DNA of 62,458 nt, the filler included, from Collodictyon triciliatum (Eukaryota): assembly GCA_043381765.1 (NCBI GenBank). It is 24 parts of 24 records of this genome, joined end to end, with 100 filler letters (N's around TTAATTAATTAA, not from the genome) between each part and the next. Parts side by side here need not be neighbours in the genome. Positions count along the whole stretch, not along the records: positions 1 to 2,599 come from JBHJMP010008603.1; 23 more parts are not named here. One strand, given 5' to 3'. Each line of letters begins with the position of its first letter. Position 1 is the stretch's first letter. The notes beneath the pieces are model-generated. The model saw only the letters and a program-made list of their open reading frames with translations. It did not search any database and had not been told where the DNA came from. Of this stretch, positions 1 to 47,689 are shown piece after piece. The position numbers were made by a program, and so were the translations under genes.

Positions 1-186
1 AAAAAACAATTTTTTTTTTTTTTTAAGGCTGGAACAAATAATTTCAACAGAAAACTGGCCTCATACAACAAATAATTCAAAAAAATCTATAGAAGCACCA
101 AAAAGTATTAATTACTCATTAAATTGTTCGAGTCATAAGTATTCATCCTGCTATTTATCTCGGAGAGGGCATCACATAGATTGGTA

Positions 187-933
187 TCATGGTACGGAGA
201 TTTCTGATCTTGAAGCTCCTGTTAGCAAAGGGCGAGTTAATTCTAAGGGCATCACAAGAATGTTCTAATTTTCCCTTCTTTTTTTTTTTTTTATTGCTTT
301 GTATTTCTGTCGTTCTTACCGCCAAGTAGATCAAAAAGGACGAAAACTCTTCGAAATCAACTCGGTTATCCTTGTTCTTATCAATAGCGCCGAATATTTT
401 TTTCATCTATGTATTGATTAGATGCTTAAAATCAAAATAAATTGTCGTACTACCATTTCATATTTTTGCATAAAACAAAACAAAAACAAAAACAAAAACA
501 AAAACAAAAACAAAAACAAAAACAAAAAACGGAGAAAGTCTCGACCTCGGAAGTGGACGGGTAAAATCCCAAATAGTTGAAGACGAGCTCCATCTCCCGG
601 GCATCAAGGTCTCCGTTTCTGTCCTCATCAAATTTGGTGAACAATCTTCCTCCTTGGCTACATATTCAACTCATTTGATGATTAAATATATCACTTATAC
701 TCATGATTTATTCTAAAGGAAAAGTAGCTAAGACACCTTGTATTGCACGTAGAGCGCAACAGAAAAATAGCTTACAGGAAAAAGCTGACCGAGCCGAACG
801 CAGGCGGGGTCTTCGTTGAAGATTTTTTGGTGATTGGGCAGCTAGGGTTGAAGATTGAAGCGATGTGATTGGTGGCAGCTTTCACACTCGAATAGGATTC
901 CTATCACATTTCGGTGAATTATAAATAAGATGA

Positions 934-1025
<92 letters not shown>

Positions 1026-2482
1026 CACAAGAGATTTTCTTGCCAGATCGGATACGAGTTGCTAAATTTATGATAGTTAAGGATGCCAATTGTTTCATTT
1101 TAAAATATTCAAGCTCGACTTATCTAACACAAGATTACAGCACCCATGGTATATTTCTTCAATGGTTTCCGGTTTTTGGACATAAAGCATGCCAAGACAA
1201 ATATTCCTTATAATTTTCATTTTATCTATACCCTGGCTTCATTCAGCGCATCAACTTCATCCTGGTCTAGGGTTGAGTCGCCAATAGTCGTGTTCGTCTT
1301 AATATTTTGGATAGTAAGCACTAAATGACGTCCGCGACCTATAAACTCGGCAACCTTTGGGTATTTAAAGATGAGAAATGAAGAATCAATAATCAATAAT
1401 AAATAATCTACACTCCACAATACAAGAAATAAAAGAGGAAAAAAAAAAGTAACCTCGAGCATGGACACAACAGCTCGTGTTTGATCGTCAATTACAAACA
1501 GCAGGATAGTTGCCGACTCTTTTGCCTTTCTCTCCAATTCTACTAACCCAGCATGCCAATCATCAACCTAAACATATTGGCAGTAAATCAGAGGATTTCT
1601 TCTTTTTTTTAAAAAAAAAAATAAATAAATAAAAAAATAAAATAATGCATGGTGCAAAATGGTGACAGAAGCTCCAACATAGAATCACTAATGTAAATTG
1701 GATTCTAAGATGAATAAACCTGTGGATTGTAGTATGATATCTTTTCTTGCTCTAGAATAGGCATCGCGATGGTCTTTCTCCATGTTGTAGGATTGCATGA
1801 GCCTCCCAAAAAGACATGGGTGGTACAGTCCATTTGAATTTTCACTAAATTCGCGTGACACAAAATAAGGATTTTATGTATATTCTTGAAATGCCTTACA
1901 CATTAGAGAGGAAAAAAGACAATCGAAGTTTCATGTTTTATAGGTAATCAATAGAACAATTACGAACATGGTTGGCCTTTGGGTTCTTCCTTCTCAATCT
2001 TTTGGATAAGATCCAAAAGTTCTCCAAACTCTTTCTGGTTTAGGATCCCGTCTCCGTTCTTTGTATATTTTTATGTTCAAATGTTATTCGATGTATCTCT
2101 AAAGTCTAAGTTACTATGGCATGATAAAGAATGATGGCACCAAAATTGACCTTGTCGACTTCGAGAAATAACGTACGCAATTCGTTTTTGCTCATTATTA
2201 TATTCTTGCTGAGCAGAAACTATTTATAAATGGTAATAAAATAAACCAATATTGTCGCGGTTATTGCCCATGGTCATCACAAACCATCAAAAGTACACTC
2301 AAGCAAGGACAAAATGAATTAACATAATCAGTTAATGTCTCGATATGGGTTGCGAGTGATTTGAAATGGGAAAATAAAAAGAGCACCTCGATGAACTCAT
2401 CCTCGGTCAAAGCACCATCAACATTTTTATCTGCTCGGATAAACTGTTTCTCGACAGGACTATCAAAAATTCGCATCACCAT
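187..2482 (-). CDS. Multi-exon protein: EF-hand pair + Raw-like nucleoside 2-deoxyribosyltransferase-like domain + EF-hand pair
   Basis: GT-AG splicing joins, in frame: DKNVDGALTEDEF; LFLEVDK|NGDGILNQKEF; VFLGGSCNPTTWRKTIAMPILEQEKISYYNPQ|VDDWHAGLVELERKAKESATILLFVIDDQTRAVVSMLE|VAEFIGRGRHLVL...LNEAR|QLVSDLARKSLV|ESYSSVKAA...; DEDRNGDLDAREM; DKNKDNRVDFEEF; TGA at 187-189. Confidence 0.8.
934..1023. repeat. (AAT)n microsatellite in an intron
   Basis: Perfect AAT tandem run between predicted exons. Confidence 0.95.
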
Positions 2483-2502
2483 CGAAAACGGAATAGTGAA
2501 AA

Positions 2503-2594
2503 GAATAGAATAGAATAGAATAGAATAGAATAGAATAGAATAGAATAGAATAGAATAGAATAGAATAGAATAGAATAGAATAGAATAGAATAGA
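2503..2594. repeat. (AATAG)n microsatellite at contig end
   Basis: Perfect pentamer run; the same motif recurs at ~41900-41997. Confidence 0.95.
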
Positions 2595-2599
2595 AAAGA

Positions 2600-6162: not shown

Positions 6163-6451
6163 TGTCCTCCCACGCCTGGCCTCTATTAACCAGGCTTGCG
6201 TTCATATCTCGGCCCACATAATGACTTGAACACAAGCACAACAACAAAGAGGAAAGAAAGAAAAGAAGAAAAAAGAAAAAAGAAAAAAAGGCACTCTTAT
6301 AAATATAAACTAGTTACAACAGGAATCGGGTATTGTAAATCAATAATAAAAAAAATCACGAAATAATTAAAAAAAAATATCATAGAAATCACATTAAAAA
6401 TCACAAAAAAAATCACATAAACAACTTATCATTAAATATCACAGGGATCAA

Positions 6452-6771
6452 ATGCAACCACGCCGCTCAGAATCGCAGCCAAAGCCACGCCCGGCACAAA
6501 AACAACAACAACTACCACAACAGTGGCAAAACACGCAACAGACGACGGGAAACTCACAACATCTGCTCCAAAGCGGCGGCCTTCGCACAAACGTCGCGTC
6601 ACCCGAGCGGCTCAAACAGCGAATCCACGCGCTGAGTACTCCGCAGTACACAATACCGAAGGAAGGCACTTTCCATCACAAGTCTGCTGCGTTTCTGGCC
6701 GAGAAGGCAGCAAATGACCCCAACTTTCCCTTGCATGTGGACGACTCTGAAATACGCTACAAGTCATCCAA
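6452..6771 (+). CDS. Hypothetical protein, first exon (Q/P-rich N-terminus), divergent from HRD1-like gene
   Basis: GC-richer ATG-initiated ORF ending at AAG|GTTGGT donor before a T-rich intron. Confidence 0.55.
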
Positions 6772-23261: not shown

Positions 23262-24830
23262 TCACCGGGCGTCACCAAAGACCTGGGAATTGCCATATGG
23301 TTGGGAATACTGGGGGTGGCCACATGAGTCGCGTCGGTGCGGAGGAGTTGCTGCATGTTCGTGTGTTCCTGAATCACCTGCACGGATGCGTCTCTTTGTG
23401 CTAAGTCCGGCGTCGCTGCGGTTGGAGAGTGGCCGAAATTCTGCAATCAGAAACCGGAGAATGCACATTGGAAAATGGATTGTCGACACTTTATTATGGG
23501 TTCTTTGGTTATTGATAATCTGAAAAAATGCTTAAGTGTTTTCTATTGTTGTATTTGATAATGGAGAAAATAAGAGATTCTCTTAATGATAAAAATGTGT
23601 GTAAATGGGATACTCACCTGAAGTTCTTCGCGTCTGCACATGGACGGGAATATGTTGTGTCTCGTGTCCGCGACTCGACTTTGTTGCTCAATAATCAGAG
23701 AATTTGGCTTCGAATGTTCCACATATCTGACACATAATGCTATATTATGACAATGGAAATTCAATTTTTGTGCTTTATGCATGAATAAAATTCTTCCGTA
23801 CGAATTATAATAAAGTTCATCGACTAGGTGTATGCAAGTACAAAACAAAATGCTCAAAGTGAAGTGAAGATAAAAAAACATCTGATTGCTTAAGACTTAC
23901 GGTTTTCGCATCCAGGCATAGTGGAGAGCCTTTGCAGTATTGATGTCCGCGATTCGACTTCGTTGCTCAATAATCATCGAATTGGGCTTCGAATATTCCA
24001 CATAACCGCACACAATTTGCTCTATTTTCACAAGATAAATTTCAATTTTTATGCTCTATGCATGAATATACCTTTCTTTATGTATTATAACAAAAACATC
24101 GACTCACTGTATGCAAGTACAATGCAAGGTGCTCGAAGCGAAGAGCAAAATAAAATAATATATCTAATTGCACAAAACTTACGGTTATCGTATTCGAGCA
24201 TAGTGGAGAGCTATTGCAGTGTGTGAAGCAGACTGCGTCGTATTCCGGCATAGTGCAGAGCCTTTGCGGGTCTTGTGTGGAGCAGACTTCGTCGCATTCG
24301 GGCATACTGGAGAGCCTTCGAGGGCTGTGTGTGTGAAGCAGACTTCGTCGACGTTCGACATAGTGGAGAGCCTTCGTGGGTCTTGTGTAAAGCAGACTGC
24401 GTCGTATTCCGGCATGGTGGAGAGCCTTTGCGGGTTGCGTGTAAAGCAGACTGCGTCGTATTCCGGCATAGTGAAGAGCCTTCGAAGTTGCGTGTGAAGC
24501 AGACATCGTCGACGTTCGGCATAGTGGAGAGCCTTCGTGGGTCTTGTGTAAAGCAGACTGCGTCGTATTCCGGCATGGTGGAGAGCCTTTGCGGGTTGCG
24601 TGTGAAGCATACTTCGTCTCATCCCGGCATAATGGAGAGCCTCTGTGTGTCTTGTGAAGCAGACATCGTCGTATCCCGGCATAGTGGAGAGCCTTCGAAG
24701 TTGCGTGTGAAGCAGACATCGTCGACGTTCGGCATAGTGGAGAGCCTTCGTGGGTCTTGTGTAAAGCAGACTGCGTCGTATTCGGGCATACTGGAGAGCC
24801 TTTGCGGGTCTTTTGTGAGTGAAGCAGACA
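23262..24830 (-). CDS. Possible repeat-containing multi-exon gene overlapping the minisatellite
   Basis: GTAAGT/GTGAGT donors and AG acceptors give ...SSPLCSNTIT|SNRGHQYCKGSPLCLDAKT|SSRGHETQH...RRTS|EFRPLS...GDAR*; no recognisable family. Confidence 0.3.
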
Positions 24831-25831
24831 TCTTCACATCCCAGCATAATGGAGAGCCTTTGCGGGTCTTGTGTGAAGCAGACTGCGTCGTCTTCCGGCA
24901 TAGTGGAGAGCCTCTGCGATTGTGTGTGAAGAAGACTGCGTCGTATTCCGGCATAGTGGAGAGCCTTCGAGGGTCTTGTGTAAGCAGACTGCGTCGTATT
25001 CCGGCATAATGGAGAGCCTTCGAGGGTTGTGTGTGTGAAGTAGACTGCGTCGTCTTCCGGCATAGTGGAGAGCCTTCGCGGGTCTTGTGAAGCAGACTGC
25101 ATCGTATTCCGGCATAGTGCAGAGCCTTTGTGTGTGTCTTGTGTGTGAAGCAGACTGCGTCGTATTCCGGCATAGTGGAGGGCCTTTCAGGGTTGCGTGT
25201 GTGAAGCAGACTGCGTCGTAATCACGGCATAGTGGAGAGCCTTCGAGGGCGTGTCTTGTGTCTTGTGAAGCAGACTGCGTCGTATTCCGGCATAGTGCAG
25301 AGCCTTCGGGGGTTGCGTGTGTGAAGCAGACTTCGTTGCTCGATATAAAGGGCATTGGGCTTCGAATATTCCACATATCTGACACATATCGCACTATTTA
25401 CACAAGAAAAATTCAATTTTTATACTCCATGCATGAATATACCATTCTGTATGAATTATAATAAAAAAAACATTGACCAAGTATATGCAAATACAATGCA
25501 AGGTGCTCGAAGCGAAGATAAAAAAATAGAATATCTGATTGCTTAAGACTTACGGCTTTCGTATCCGGGCATAATGCAGAGCCTTGCGGGTCTTGTGTTT
25601 CTTGTGAAGCAGACTGCGTCGACGTTCGGCATAGTGGAGAGCCTTTGTGTGTGTCTTGTGTGTGTGTGTGTGAAGCAGACTGCGTCGTATCCCGGCATAG
25701 TGGAGAGCCTTCGAGGGTTGTGTGTGAAACAGATTTCGTCGTATTCCGGCATAATGGAGAGTCTTTGCGGGTTGTGTGTCTTGTGAAGCAGACTGCGTCG
25801 TATTCCGGCGTAATGGAGAGCCTTCGAGGAT
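23670..25831. repeat. Composite array: ~54-bp GC-rich minisatellite (~25 units) plus three ~220-bp AT-rich cassettes
   Basis: Unit GTGAAGCAGACTGCGTCGTATTCCGGCATAGTGGAGAGCCTTCG(A/T)GGGTCTTGT, spacing 52-64 bp (mode 54) from 24228 to 25326 and again ~25560-25831; cassettes at ~23679-23900, ~23958-24182, ~25331-25553. Confidence 0.95.
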
Positions 25832-26103
25832 NNNNNNNNNNNNNNNNNNNNNNNNNNNNNNNNNNNNNNNNNNNNTTAATTAATTAANNNNNNNNNNNNN
25901 NNNNNNNNNNNNNNNNNNNNNNNNNNNNNNNATAAAAAGAAACATAAAAAGAAACATAAAAAGAAACATAAAAAGAAACATAAAAAGAAACATAAAAAGA
26001 AACATAAAAAGAAACATAAAAAGAAACATAAAAAGAAACATAAAAAGAAGAAAAAAGTAATGATGTACATCAGACTGCGCAGTATGCGCTGATTAACCTA
26101 AAC

Positions 26104-45199: not shown

Positions 45200-47379
45200 T
45201 TAATTATCAGTCTTTTTGTAGACAAGGGATGGATAGTAGCCCCAATTGTACTCGTCATATCGGATTTTGACCGCGTAAGAGCCTCCTTGTTTTATCAGCT
45301 CGACAACTTGGGCCTTTTTGTGTTCATCTAGCAAGTCGATAACCAAGTCTAGAGCTACTGGAGGTCTCATTTCATACTCTTCAAATATCCATTCAAATAT
45401 CTTTGGAAGACGCAGCCGCCCTTTTTCATCCACGAGATTCTTGTTCATTCGAAGGTGGTTAACACCTATCTCACGAATTTGCTCGGCGAGATTATCACTG
45501 TGGAATATTGTAACGTGGGGAAAGCTCGACAGATGCCCTCTGTGAAGGGCTAGACTTAGAAGCGGGTTCACGGGGTTTAAGGATGGGAGAATAGGTTTGT
45601 ACTTGGCGACATGAGAGACAAGCTCACTGACACGGCGACTGAGTAACTTACCCATCACACTTGGTCTGCCCATTACTGTATTTAAAATGACGGATTCAAC
45701 GTCGCCAGGGGATACAAGCAAACCATCCACCTCATATGAGGCTCTCTTTAAAAAATTCTTCATGGATGACGTAGAAAACGGTGCTCCGATTATAATAAGA
45801 GAGTGGATGAGGATTAAATGATATAGGTTCATAAAGAATGTTACCAGAGAGGTTTCATTCATATGGGACAGAGAAACGACTTGTAATTCGCTTGTGTTTT
45901 TCTCAAAGCTGTAAAAACGATAAGCAAACGCCTCGTTCGTAGCGTAATCTGAATTATCTTGACGCGCTTCCTCATAAAGTGTTATCGCCAGTGCCAGAAG
46001 GTCTTCCACCACAATTTCTGCTGGTCTTGCTTCAACGCGATTCCAAACGATTTTGTGACGATTCAAAACAACGGGCTTCATGTGTTTTTGATTCTCTTCG
46101 ATAGAAGTTATCAAGTAAATATGGTCAGAGGCTTTAGTCGCAGTTGAGGGGATTTTAAAGTTTTCGTGAATTTGGTTCATCACGGATTTGGCCCACTCTG
46201 AAACAGCTTCTTCGTCGGTTGAGCAGAAGAAATACGTCTGTCTGACTGTTCTAACTTCCAAGAATACCCAACCTGGTACATTCGAAGCAGTAGTGTTTGG
46301 AACAACCGAATTAATATGTTTTAGTGGTATCTTAACCATGACATCTTTGGTGCGTATGTCTACAGAAATAAGTGAGTCGATAGTCAACAGCAGAATCTCC
46401 TCCTTCCAACAAGTGCGCCAGCAGACTCGAATGATGCGAGAGTGTTTTACGGTTGAGGGGAAATCACTGGCCAGAAGAACCTTGTTTGGGTCGTCATTAT
46501 CTAGCGTTGCCAAAGAACCGATGTTTAGGAAAAGCTCTGTGAGTCTATTGCGCGCTGTGGCTGGGTCTTGTAAGGTGGCACGGAGATGTGTTTCGATGGT
46601 CTTGATGGCGTGGTCACATGAGGAAATCGCTGTATAGTAATCAAGTAAATCTTGGTACGAAGAGTTTGGATTTTCCTTAAAGTAGCCGATATCTGTTAGA
46701 TTTATTCGAGAAACAGATACGGCTTCATTTTTGGTTGAGCTTTTTGAACGAAAGGTCTTCCAAATATCCTCACAGGAGCGATCAAATGCAATGAGTTCTT
46801 CTATACTGACGATATTCATGGATGCCGGAGAATCATCAAAATCATCATTCGACATAGTCGCATCCATTGGCATCAAATCAGTGCGAGAATCTCTAGCGTT
46901 GAATGTGTTGCCTTCTGTTACGATGACAAACAGGAAGTGCCCTTTTCCTTCTCGGGTTATATCAATAACAGCAGATACCTCGATTCTAGAGACATAAACA
47001 CAGGGAGTCGAATAACTGCTATATTCTGAATCGACTGCTGTATCCGTGAGCTCAGACGAATAGTCGGTGTGGTCTGCAGGGTAAAGCATGGGCTGCAGGG
47101 TTTGCCCAATATTCATTAGTTCTGTAGTATCGATATCAACAGAGGGAGGGCGCATATCTTGGAGTGGGTGAACACTGGAACTATGATGTCTCATGTGACT
47201 TGGTTTAGCTCTCGCTTCCTGAATTGAGACTGAGGAAGTGTCGATATCGGTAGGCGCTGAGGACGCAAATGATAATTGCAATTGTAAATGGGTCGAGTCC
47301 GTGTCTTTGTCTGTCATATCCAATTCGTTTTCAGGTTTGAAAATTTCGGGCTCCTTTGAATTAAGATTTTCTCTAGTGT
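45200..47379 (-). CDS. PH-like domain + DUF547 protein; large terminal exon, 5' truncated
   Basis: IPLKHINSV...FLEVRTVRQTYFFCSTDEEAVSEWAKSV (PH); SELQVVSLS...FFMNLYHLILIH...YEVDG...DVESVIL...LPKIFEW...YDEYNW (DUF547-like). Confidence 0.75.
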
Positions 47380-47689
47380 NNNNNNNNNNNNNNNNNNNNN
47401 NNNNNNNNNNNNNNNNNNNNNNNTTAATTAATTAANNNNNNNNNNNNNNNNNNNNNNNNNNNNNNNNNNNNNNNNNNNNCCCCCCGCCCCCCCGCTTGCC
47501 CCGCCCCCCCCCCCCCCCTTCCCGGGCTCCTTTTTTTTTTTTTTGTTTCTTTTTTTTTCCTTTTTTTTTTTTTTTTCTTTTTTTTTTTTTGTTTTCCTTT
47601 TTTCCTTTTTTTTTCTTTTTTTTCTTCTTTATCTATTCCCTTTGTGTGGTTTGATTTCGTCTTCTGCTTCAATGGCGGTGGGGGCAGTG

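Follow-up and report, generated by a model that had tools for sequence, protein, structure and literature searches.

A Raw-type gene on a short Collodictyon contig

The 62,458-nucleotide window analysed here, from the genome of Collodictyon triciliatum, is an artificial chain of ~2.6-kb contigs. They are joined by a 12-base linker (TTAATTAATTAA) flanked by runs of N, present in 23 copies mostly ~2.7 kb apart, so that gene neighbourhood is uninformative. The contig G000:C8603 (2,599 bases) exhibits on its minus strand a Raw-type gene with 11 exons and 10 GT-AG introns of 92 to 170 bases. The spliced model is stop-free over 352 codons (Table 1). The contig carries the front two-thirds of the gene, which is a real, expressed Raw orthologue truncated by the contig end.

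Transcript-type contigs exhibit seven of the 10 introns (introns 1-6 and 8) as joints. Intron 10 is indicated by reciprocal loose contig ends at 219 and 319. Introns 7 and 9, which adjoin skipped repeats, are deduced from the exact fit of a 304-nt contig and a matching joint in the paralogue on contig C840 described below. From seven runs on record, four were aligned to the window and four to this paralogue (five different runs overall). Runs X3 and X4 are RNA on record and support introns 1 and 3 as well as the joint leading onward from exon 11. The RNA nature of runs X1 and X2 is presumed; their contigs skip GT-AG introns and carry poly-A ends. The joint 1844/1968 is present in all four runs aligned to the window. 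All transcript evidence comes from contigs, none of which spans the full length of the gene.

The initial annotation had proposed in-frame splicing of about 11 exons, which these data bear out, but placed both ends of the gene wrongly. The ATG at 2482, taken as the start, lies in an intron, upstream of the acceptor at 2460. A contig of run X2 exhibits 179 different letters 5' of 2459, corresponding to the true upstream exon. When this exon was sought in the assembly, a 30-base pattern gave no match, and a 20-base pattern gave two matches with 2 mismatches, which we treat as chance. The stop at 187 is out of frame; the last exon on the contig ends at 116 and then splices into a second Raw domain.

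One further joint, 586/1232, has non-canonical ends. We rejected it as a splice form, as it is a transcript of the C840 paralogue aligned to the window gene. Intron 5 (1355-1453) is 99 bases long, in frame and stop-free. Its retention would add 33 mostly hydrophobic residues directly after the glutamate equivalent to E422 of Drosophila Raw. Its counterpart in the C840 paralogue is 100 bases long, and the contigs exhibit intron 5 as spliced.

Table 1. Features of the Raw-type gene on contig G000:C8603, in window positions
Feature	Position	Strand	Content	Evidence and remarks
Upstream intron	2460..2599	-	Microsatellite; includes ATG 2482	Interrupted by contig end
Exon 1 of the model	2387..2459	-	EF-hand loop 1 at 2431-2396	A further exon lies 5'; acceptor AG 2461-2460; joint 2219/2387 in X1, X2, X4
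Exon 2	2151..2219	-	EF1-EF2 helices and first two residues of loop 2	Joints 2219/2387, 2058/2151
Exon 3	1968..2058	-	Remainder of EF-hand loop 2 (to 2029) and linker	Joints 2058/2151, 1844/1968
Exon 4	1720..1844	-	Start of Raw domain 1; Phe 1812-1810 = fly F354, Cys 1797-1795 = fly C359	
Exon 5	1454..1567	-	Glu 1534-1532 = fly E396, Glu 1456-1454 = fly E422	Joint 1564/1717
Exon 6	1232..1354	-	Second half of Raw domain 1	Joints 1351-1353/1451-1453, 1061/1232
Exon 7	1026..1061	-	Raw domain 1 helix	Joint 1061/1232; donor 1025 by GT-AG, frame and contig fit
Exon 8	776..900	-	Final helix of Raw domain 1 and linker	Joint 657/776
Exon 9	546..657	-	EF-hand loop 3 at 629-594; exit helix carries fly A532 equivalent	Joint 657/776
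Exon 10	320..406	-	EF-hand loop 4 at 382-347	Loose ends 219 and 319
Exon 11	116..218	-	Open-frame linker to Raw domain 2	Phase-1 donor; X1, X2, X3 contigs continue onward
Intron 11	1..115	-		Interrupted by contig end

EF-hand lobes, Raw domains and the C840 paralogue

The model exhibits canonical EF-hand loops at residues 10, 46, 262 and 298, so that four loops bracket the first Raw domain as initially annotated. All six ligand-type positions fit in each of the four. The spacing inside each pair is 36 residues, comparable to that of calmodulin. None of 10,000 shuffles of the protein contained three or more canonical loops, and the six-frame translation of the remaining window contains one such motif. 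Loop 2 is formed only by splicing. Exon 10 matches the Pfam profiles EF-hand_5, EF-hand_1 and EF-hand_6 above cut-off; the matches of exon 1 (EF-hand_1, E = 0.0017) and exon 9 (EF-hand_6, E = 0.00017) are below it. The feature expected of a calmodulin-like sensor, paired canonical 12-residue loops between helices, is present (as helix-loop-helix pairs in the structural model of a homologue).

The exon stretch 1720-1842 matches PF15891 at 32.4 bits (cut-off 30), which on sequence grounds places the gene in the Raw/OLRN-1 family, as first annotated. A search of the ESM Atlas returned only short PF15891 clusters (score 0.90). The PF15891 domains are in tandem: the first is above cut-off in the window gene, and both are complete in two paralogues (C840 and C4435) and in two Diphylleia proteins (P0001 and P0003).

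Contigs from X1, X2 and X3 extend from exon 11 into sequence exactly matching contig G000:C840. The X3 contig (204 nt) joins window 115-188 to 6382-6431 and 6587-6667 of locus L012 on C840. There, Raw domain 2 is encoded by five exons (G000:C840:32381-33354; L012 6382-7355), and the reading frame remains open through these shared exons to the end of the domain. Because transcripts splice past exon 11 into this second domain, the architecture is EF2-Raw-EF2-Raw. In the annotated layout of EF pair, NDT-like (nucleoside 2-deoxyribosyltransferase-like) domain and EF pair, both EF pairs and the first domain were right and the second Raw domain was missed. Contig C840 encodes a complete paralogue of 17 exons and 532 codons, with at least 15 transcript joints, one of which stems from a transcript of the window gene. 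We estimate the full-length product of the window gene at ~510-550 aa, judging by the partial model and this 532-aa paralogue. The gene's later domain-2 exons would be the shared C840 copy.

Comparison of window 1-2459 with L012 3705-6381 reveals three tracts that are near-identical, introns included: the core of domain 1, EF4, and the sequence from mid intron 11 onward. Introns 4, 5, 9 and 10 are 77-93% alike between the two genes, as is the far half of intron 11. The other six of the 10 introns are alike only at the level of shuffled sequence and cannot be aligned, and the exons between the tracts are 52-70% alike. The two genes thus appear to be paralogues between which gene conversion has occurred, and whose identical 3' halves have been collapsed into one. 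The near-identical tracts, a domain 2 that is single-copy in the assembly, and the lack of a contig spanning the whole transcript would also suit a gene that is either a partly duplicated copy or a divergent allele of the one on C840, with no full protein of its own. This is highly improbable: the frame is open over all codons of the model and onward into the shared exons, the link from the gene's own exon 11 to domain 2 recurs in three runs, drawn from two studies, and both gene versions occur in X1 and X2. Six shuffle-level introns are, moreover, what one would expect of paralogues that exchange tracts by conversion and are collapsed in their 3' half.

Two further paralogues were found from open frames and tblastn matches: C8839, which ends after domain 1, and C4435, with both Raw domains. 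The genome therefore encodes at least four Raw paralogues, and their sets of intact loops differ; the window gene retains four of four and C840 two of four. Conversion between these two genes seems to keep their catalytic parts uniform and to let loops 1 and 3 diverge. By eye, both lobe-1 loops are intact in the truncated C8839 gene (L013), and C4435 (L014) apparently retains loop 4 only.

Comparison with Drosophila Raw and other relatives

Drosophila Raw has the layout DD1-TIR1-DD2-TIR2, in which DD stands for "dimerization domain" (Chen et al. 2026, PMC13455253). According to this report, fly Raw hydrolyses cyclic ADP-ribose (cADPR) to ADP-ribose (ADPR), with a Km of about 20 nM, and does not cleave NAD; OLRN-1 of Caenorhabditis elegans likewise hydrolyses cADPR. 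The annotated view that the biochemistry of Raw is unclear is thereby superseded. In the same source, the fly activity requires both TIR domains and DD2, and is lost on mutating E396, E422, R949 or Y953. The enzyme is constitutively active, and DD deletions lower its activity. The Arg of the domain-2 motif is modelled on the pyrophosphate of cADPR. A532D is an activity-reducing allele linked to axon degeneration.

We mapped the pocket by alignment to D. melanogaster RAW (Q9NJ08; P0367, 989 aa), the residues of which agree with the numbering of PMC13455253. Seven of the eight fly pocket residues are identical in our model (F354, C359, E396, E422, D946, R949 and Y953), and D956 is replaced by Glu. 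For F354, C359, E396 and E422 the spacing is also unchanged. The Glu of the SMLE motif, annotated as catalytic, aligns with E422, one of the residues essential in the fly. The conservation was evaluated in a 95-protein alignment, a non-random sample of the 89 best-scoring, mostly animal matches, two models and four additions. F354, C359, E396 and E422 are invariant in all 95. D946, R949 and Y953 are kept in 91 (four gaps), and the D956 position is Asp in 84 and Glu in five. In Raw domain 1 of the window gene (exon 6) the D-x-x-R-x-x-x-Y motif is absent, which probably leaves the second possible pocket dead. As domain 2 in turn lacks the Cys, we regard one composite pocket, like that modelled in the fly enzyme, as likely.

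Fly Raw (NP_723416.1) and OLRN-1 have the same order of four domains as the window gene, with two PF15891 domains. Fly Raw has the same split, with the Glu pair in domain 1 and the Asp/Arg/Tyr motif in domain 2. The window protein differs in lacking the long disordered inserts of the 989-aa fly protein, in its Glu at the D956 position, and in its four canonical EF loops at the DD1 and DD2 positions, where fly Raw has none. Unlike Drosophila Raw, the window gene belongs to a unicellular host, with at least four paralogues and no SARM1-type partner found. The reported trend is that Raw enzymes co-occur with a SARM1-type cADPR maker.

A homologue search retrieved 253 proteins (E-value up to 0.001), the best full-length matches being Diphylleia rotans proteins with 44% and 43% identity over the whole model. 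Three Diphylleia proteins (EP00002 P007835 and P007836, here P0001 and P0003, and P003973, here P0010) exhibit the EF2-Raw-EF2-Raw layout at 43-47% identity. Two of the three have four canonical loops, and the D956 position is Glu as in the window gene. They are transcriptome predictions without name or described function. A tree of domain 1 (36 rows, one motif-lacking row omitted) groups the window gene with the Diphylleia proteins (support 99/97). Taken alone, this grouping would put the host probably near the collodictyonids, where Diphylleia is placed; a single gene tree does not fix an organism. The datasets recorded as containing the sequence are freshwater metatranscriptomes. As Diphylleia proteins at 43-44% identity share the four-loop layout, the four loops have been kept through long divergence. 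Of the 150 matches listed, many of which are fragments, 133 lack any canonical loop; one loop is canonical in 10, two in four, three in one and four in two. In the 95-protein alignment all four loops are canonical only in the window gene, P0001 and P0003; Pigoraptor retains loops 3 and 4, loop 3 is kept in Codosiga and in some animals, and Drosophila has none.

Many animal homologues are automatically named "EF-hand domain-containing protein" or have a Pfam EF-hand match. The pairing of EF-hands with PF15891 is accordingly old, widespread and visible in databases. Animal Raw orthologues so named in UniRef (for example in Cloeon, Timema, Lottia and Strigamia) contain PF15891 twice, some with a Pfam EF-hand match. 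The label is automatic, and at most one of their loops (EF3) is canonical in the 95-protein alignment. Other homologues combine Raw domains with DEP and RGS, with PDZ, or with BTB-Kelch domains in a single protein, and one from Cyanophora has three near-identical Raw repeats (P0343, P0344, P0341, P0095, P0339 and P0002). These represent additional signalling architectures in the family.

In the 95-protein alignment the EF lobes of the window protein align with fly DD1 and DD2. An AlphaFold model of fly DD1 (residues 173-261 of D. mauritiana, the same sequence as residues 185-273 of D. melanogaster; predicted local distance difference test, pLDDT, 82.9) matches centrin and calmodulin lobes by Foldseek (template modelling score 0.74, root-mean-square deviation (rmsd) 2.2, E-value = 0.02). 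In a second comparison it matches troponin C (Z = 11.1, rmsd 2.1) and centrin (Z = 11.0, rmsd 1.6). These Z values are below the caution line of the tool for helical proteins; EF-hand proteins dominate both match lists. When 29 animal Raw proteins that have no canonical loops were combined into a profile, its DD2 portion matched calmodulin-family chains, the best being a calmodulin-calcineurin B fusion (E-value = 7e-12), with CaBP1 at 3e-8. Since fly DD1 folds as a calmodulin/centrin lobe and the animal DD2 profile matches calmodulins, the two DDs resemble EF-hand pairs that have decayed. In fly Raw they would then be EF lobes after loss of their Ca2+ ligands. Fly A532 maps to the exit helix of EF3.

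The Raw family, its activity and the automatic EF-hand labels are already known; what is new here is the reading of DD1 and DD2 as EF-hand pairs. The term "EF-hand" is absent from the text and readable supplement of PMC13455253, figures aside (Fig. 7B draws clade architectures), and from the accessible portions of PMC2213652 and PMC10719852. A term search of the accessible text of PMC7016017 and PMC3360750 found no mention of the Raw family. Our literature searches, with most subscription papers outside their coverage, found no paper linking EF-hands to Raw.

Proposed activity and calcium control

Because four intact EF loops stand where fly Raw has its DDs, the product of the window gene is likely a Ca2+-regulated form of the Raw enzyme. 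We give a probability of about one half to its being a Ca2+-regulated cADPR hydrolase. The EF-pair/Raw/EF-pair/Raw protein would hydrolyse cADPR to ADPR, a substrate extrapolated from the two animal enzymes. Its composite pocket, by analogy with the fly, would receive two Glu from domain 1 and the Asp/Arg/Tyr motif from domain 2. The two calmodulin-like lobes are predicted from their loop sequences to bind Ca2+. Calmodulin-type lobes open on binding Ca2+, and lobe 2, packing on domain 2, may open likewise and re-set the pocket. Such a coupling of lobe 2 to the pocket is suggested by the requirement for DD2 in the fly and by the position of A532D. We favour activation by Ca2+ over inhibition by about 60:40. 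The enzyme would then act as a feedback brake, a rise in Ca2+ clearing a Ca2+-mobilising messenger.

Several observations weigh against this reading. RNA connects the window gene directly to the first one or two domain-2 exons only, and its domain-2 motif is read from single-copy exons on the contig of the paralogue. Profiles of DD1 or DD2 built from dipterans alone give weak matches to the protist EF lobes (P = 0.004 and 0.04). The TIR_2 (PF13676), TIR (PF01582) and CD38-type (PF02267) profiles revealed no cADPR-making enzyme in the genome; this search ran exon by exon through a fragmented, intron-rich assembly, and the CD38-type control matched nowhere, so that absence is not established. 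The fold and the behaviour of the fly enzyme, considered in turn below, raise two further difficulties.

The structure modelled is that of a homologue with the same layout, Diphylleia P0003 (AlphaFold; pLDDT 89.8, predicted template modelling score 0.89). It exhibits two EF lobes and two alpha/beta domains. The best structural match of domain 1 is a putative deoxyribosyltransferase (4mcj; Z = 13.4, rmsd 1.9, 120 residues aligned), followed by YtoQ (Z = 12.0), MilB (10.0) and RCL (9.6), with TIR domains at 9-10.5. Foldseek with the whole 531-aa model gave meaningless multi-domain rows. The closest fold is thus that of nucleoside deoxyribosyltransferases, in agreement with the annotated NDT-like domain. 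The NDT profile PF05014 matched neither the domain-1 pieces (E-value up to 1) nor P0001 and P0003 (E-value up to 0.1), and the TIR profile of Pfam did not match P0001 or P0003. Given that the best structural matches are NDT-type, with TIR below, "NDT-like" seems at least as apt a label as the "TIR" of PMC13455253. The NDT superfamily (NDT, YtoQ, MilB and RCL) and TIR domains have a flavodoxin-like alpha/beta fold in common with the Raw domains. They differ from them in having 9-16% identity in structural alignments and no EF-hands, and in that the Raw pocket is predicted to lie between two fused domains. Both groups act through a glutamate nucleophile, to which the glutamates of the Raw domains can be likened.

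As this fold is at least as near to nucleoside/nucleotide N-glycosidases as to TIR domains, the substrate may differ from cADPR. The protein would then be a Raw-family N-glycosidase acting, with or without Ca2+ control, on a cADPR isomer, NAD+ or a modified nucleoside monophosphate, the last being the type of substrate on which Rcl/DNPH1 and MilB act. We consider this unlikely, if by no means negligible. It would be consistent with a genome without SARM1-type TIR or CD38-type cyclase match, and with a family activity known from two animals only; but the cyclase searches are insensitive. Against it, the whole Raw signature of eight residues over two domains is conserved, distributed as asymmetrically as in fly Raw and with the Arg modelled on the pyrophosphate retained, and fly Raw does not cleave NAD.

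The lobes of the window protein may, on the other hand, be structural, since fly Raw, which has no canonical loop, shows constitutive activity that DD deletions lower. The product would in that case be a constitutive cADPR hydrolase, with EF lobes serving as a scaffold that keeps the two catalytic domains together, or as a targeting or buffering module, and bound Ca2+ leaving its rate unaffected. A C840 paralogue with half of its loops canonical, and a fly enzyme that needs DD2 without any, are in keeping with this. The four loops kept in the window gene and in two distant Diphylleia proteins argue to the contrary: a scaffold could do without the ligands, which have indeed decayed in animals. 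We regard lobes that leave the rate insensitive to Ca2+ as unlikely.

We further propose, tentatively, that the Raw family began as a calmodulin-lobed, Ca2+-gated cADPR hydrolase in unicellular eukaryotes, the fly DDs being fossil EF-hand pairs. If Ca2+ gating is true, a single protein would constitute a feedback brake, since Ca2+ itself would determine how long a Ca2+-mobilising messenger lasts. A532D would affect the exit helix of EF3, and animal orthologues with loop 3 may still sense calcium. PMC13455253 treats the regulation of Raw as an open question and names calcium signalling as untested. The EF-lobe reading of DD1 and DD2 provides a concrete hypothesis of how Raw may be regulated, and the window gene a compact protein, its loops intact, on which to examine it. 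The number of intact loops, four, two or fewer, makes the window gene and its paralogues a natural series for testing Ca2+ gating. The gene is also a candidate for a cADPR-removing enzyme outside animals, which bears on the age of cADPR signalling. A calcium-switched cADPR eraser, if true, would be a useful reagent.

The TRPM SLOG profile had no match in the genome; its control matched nowhere either, so that absence is not established. An IP3/ryanodine receptor N-terminal profile matches weakly (27.2 bits, cut-off 23; L017, G000:C899:25262-25498). The frame nearby is CxxC-rich and presumably ZZ-like.

Elsewhere in the genome, the 18S rRNA gene (2,153 bases; L015 1500-3653, G000:C1045:6387-8539) exhibits AT-rich expansions, and a second, weaker small-subunit rRNA match lies on C834. 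A degenerate tandem repeat occupies window 24078-25887, where both strands have long open frames. Window 45200-47431 exhibits an intron-free frame of more than 700 codons in an otherwise intron-rich genome, which by eye we take to resemble PH plus DUF547-type domains.
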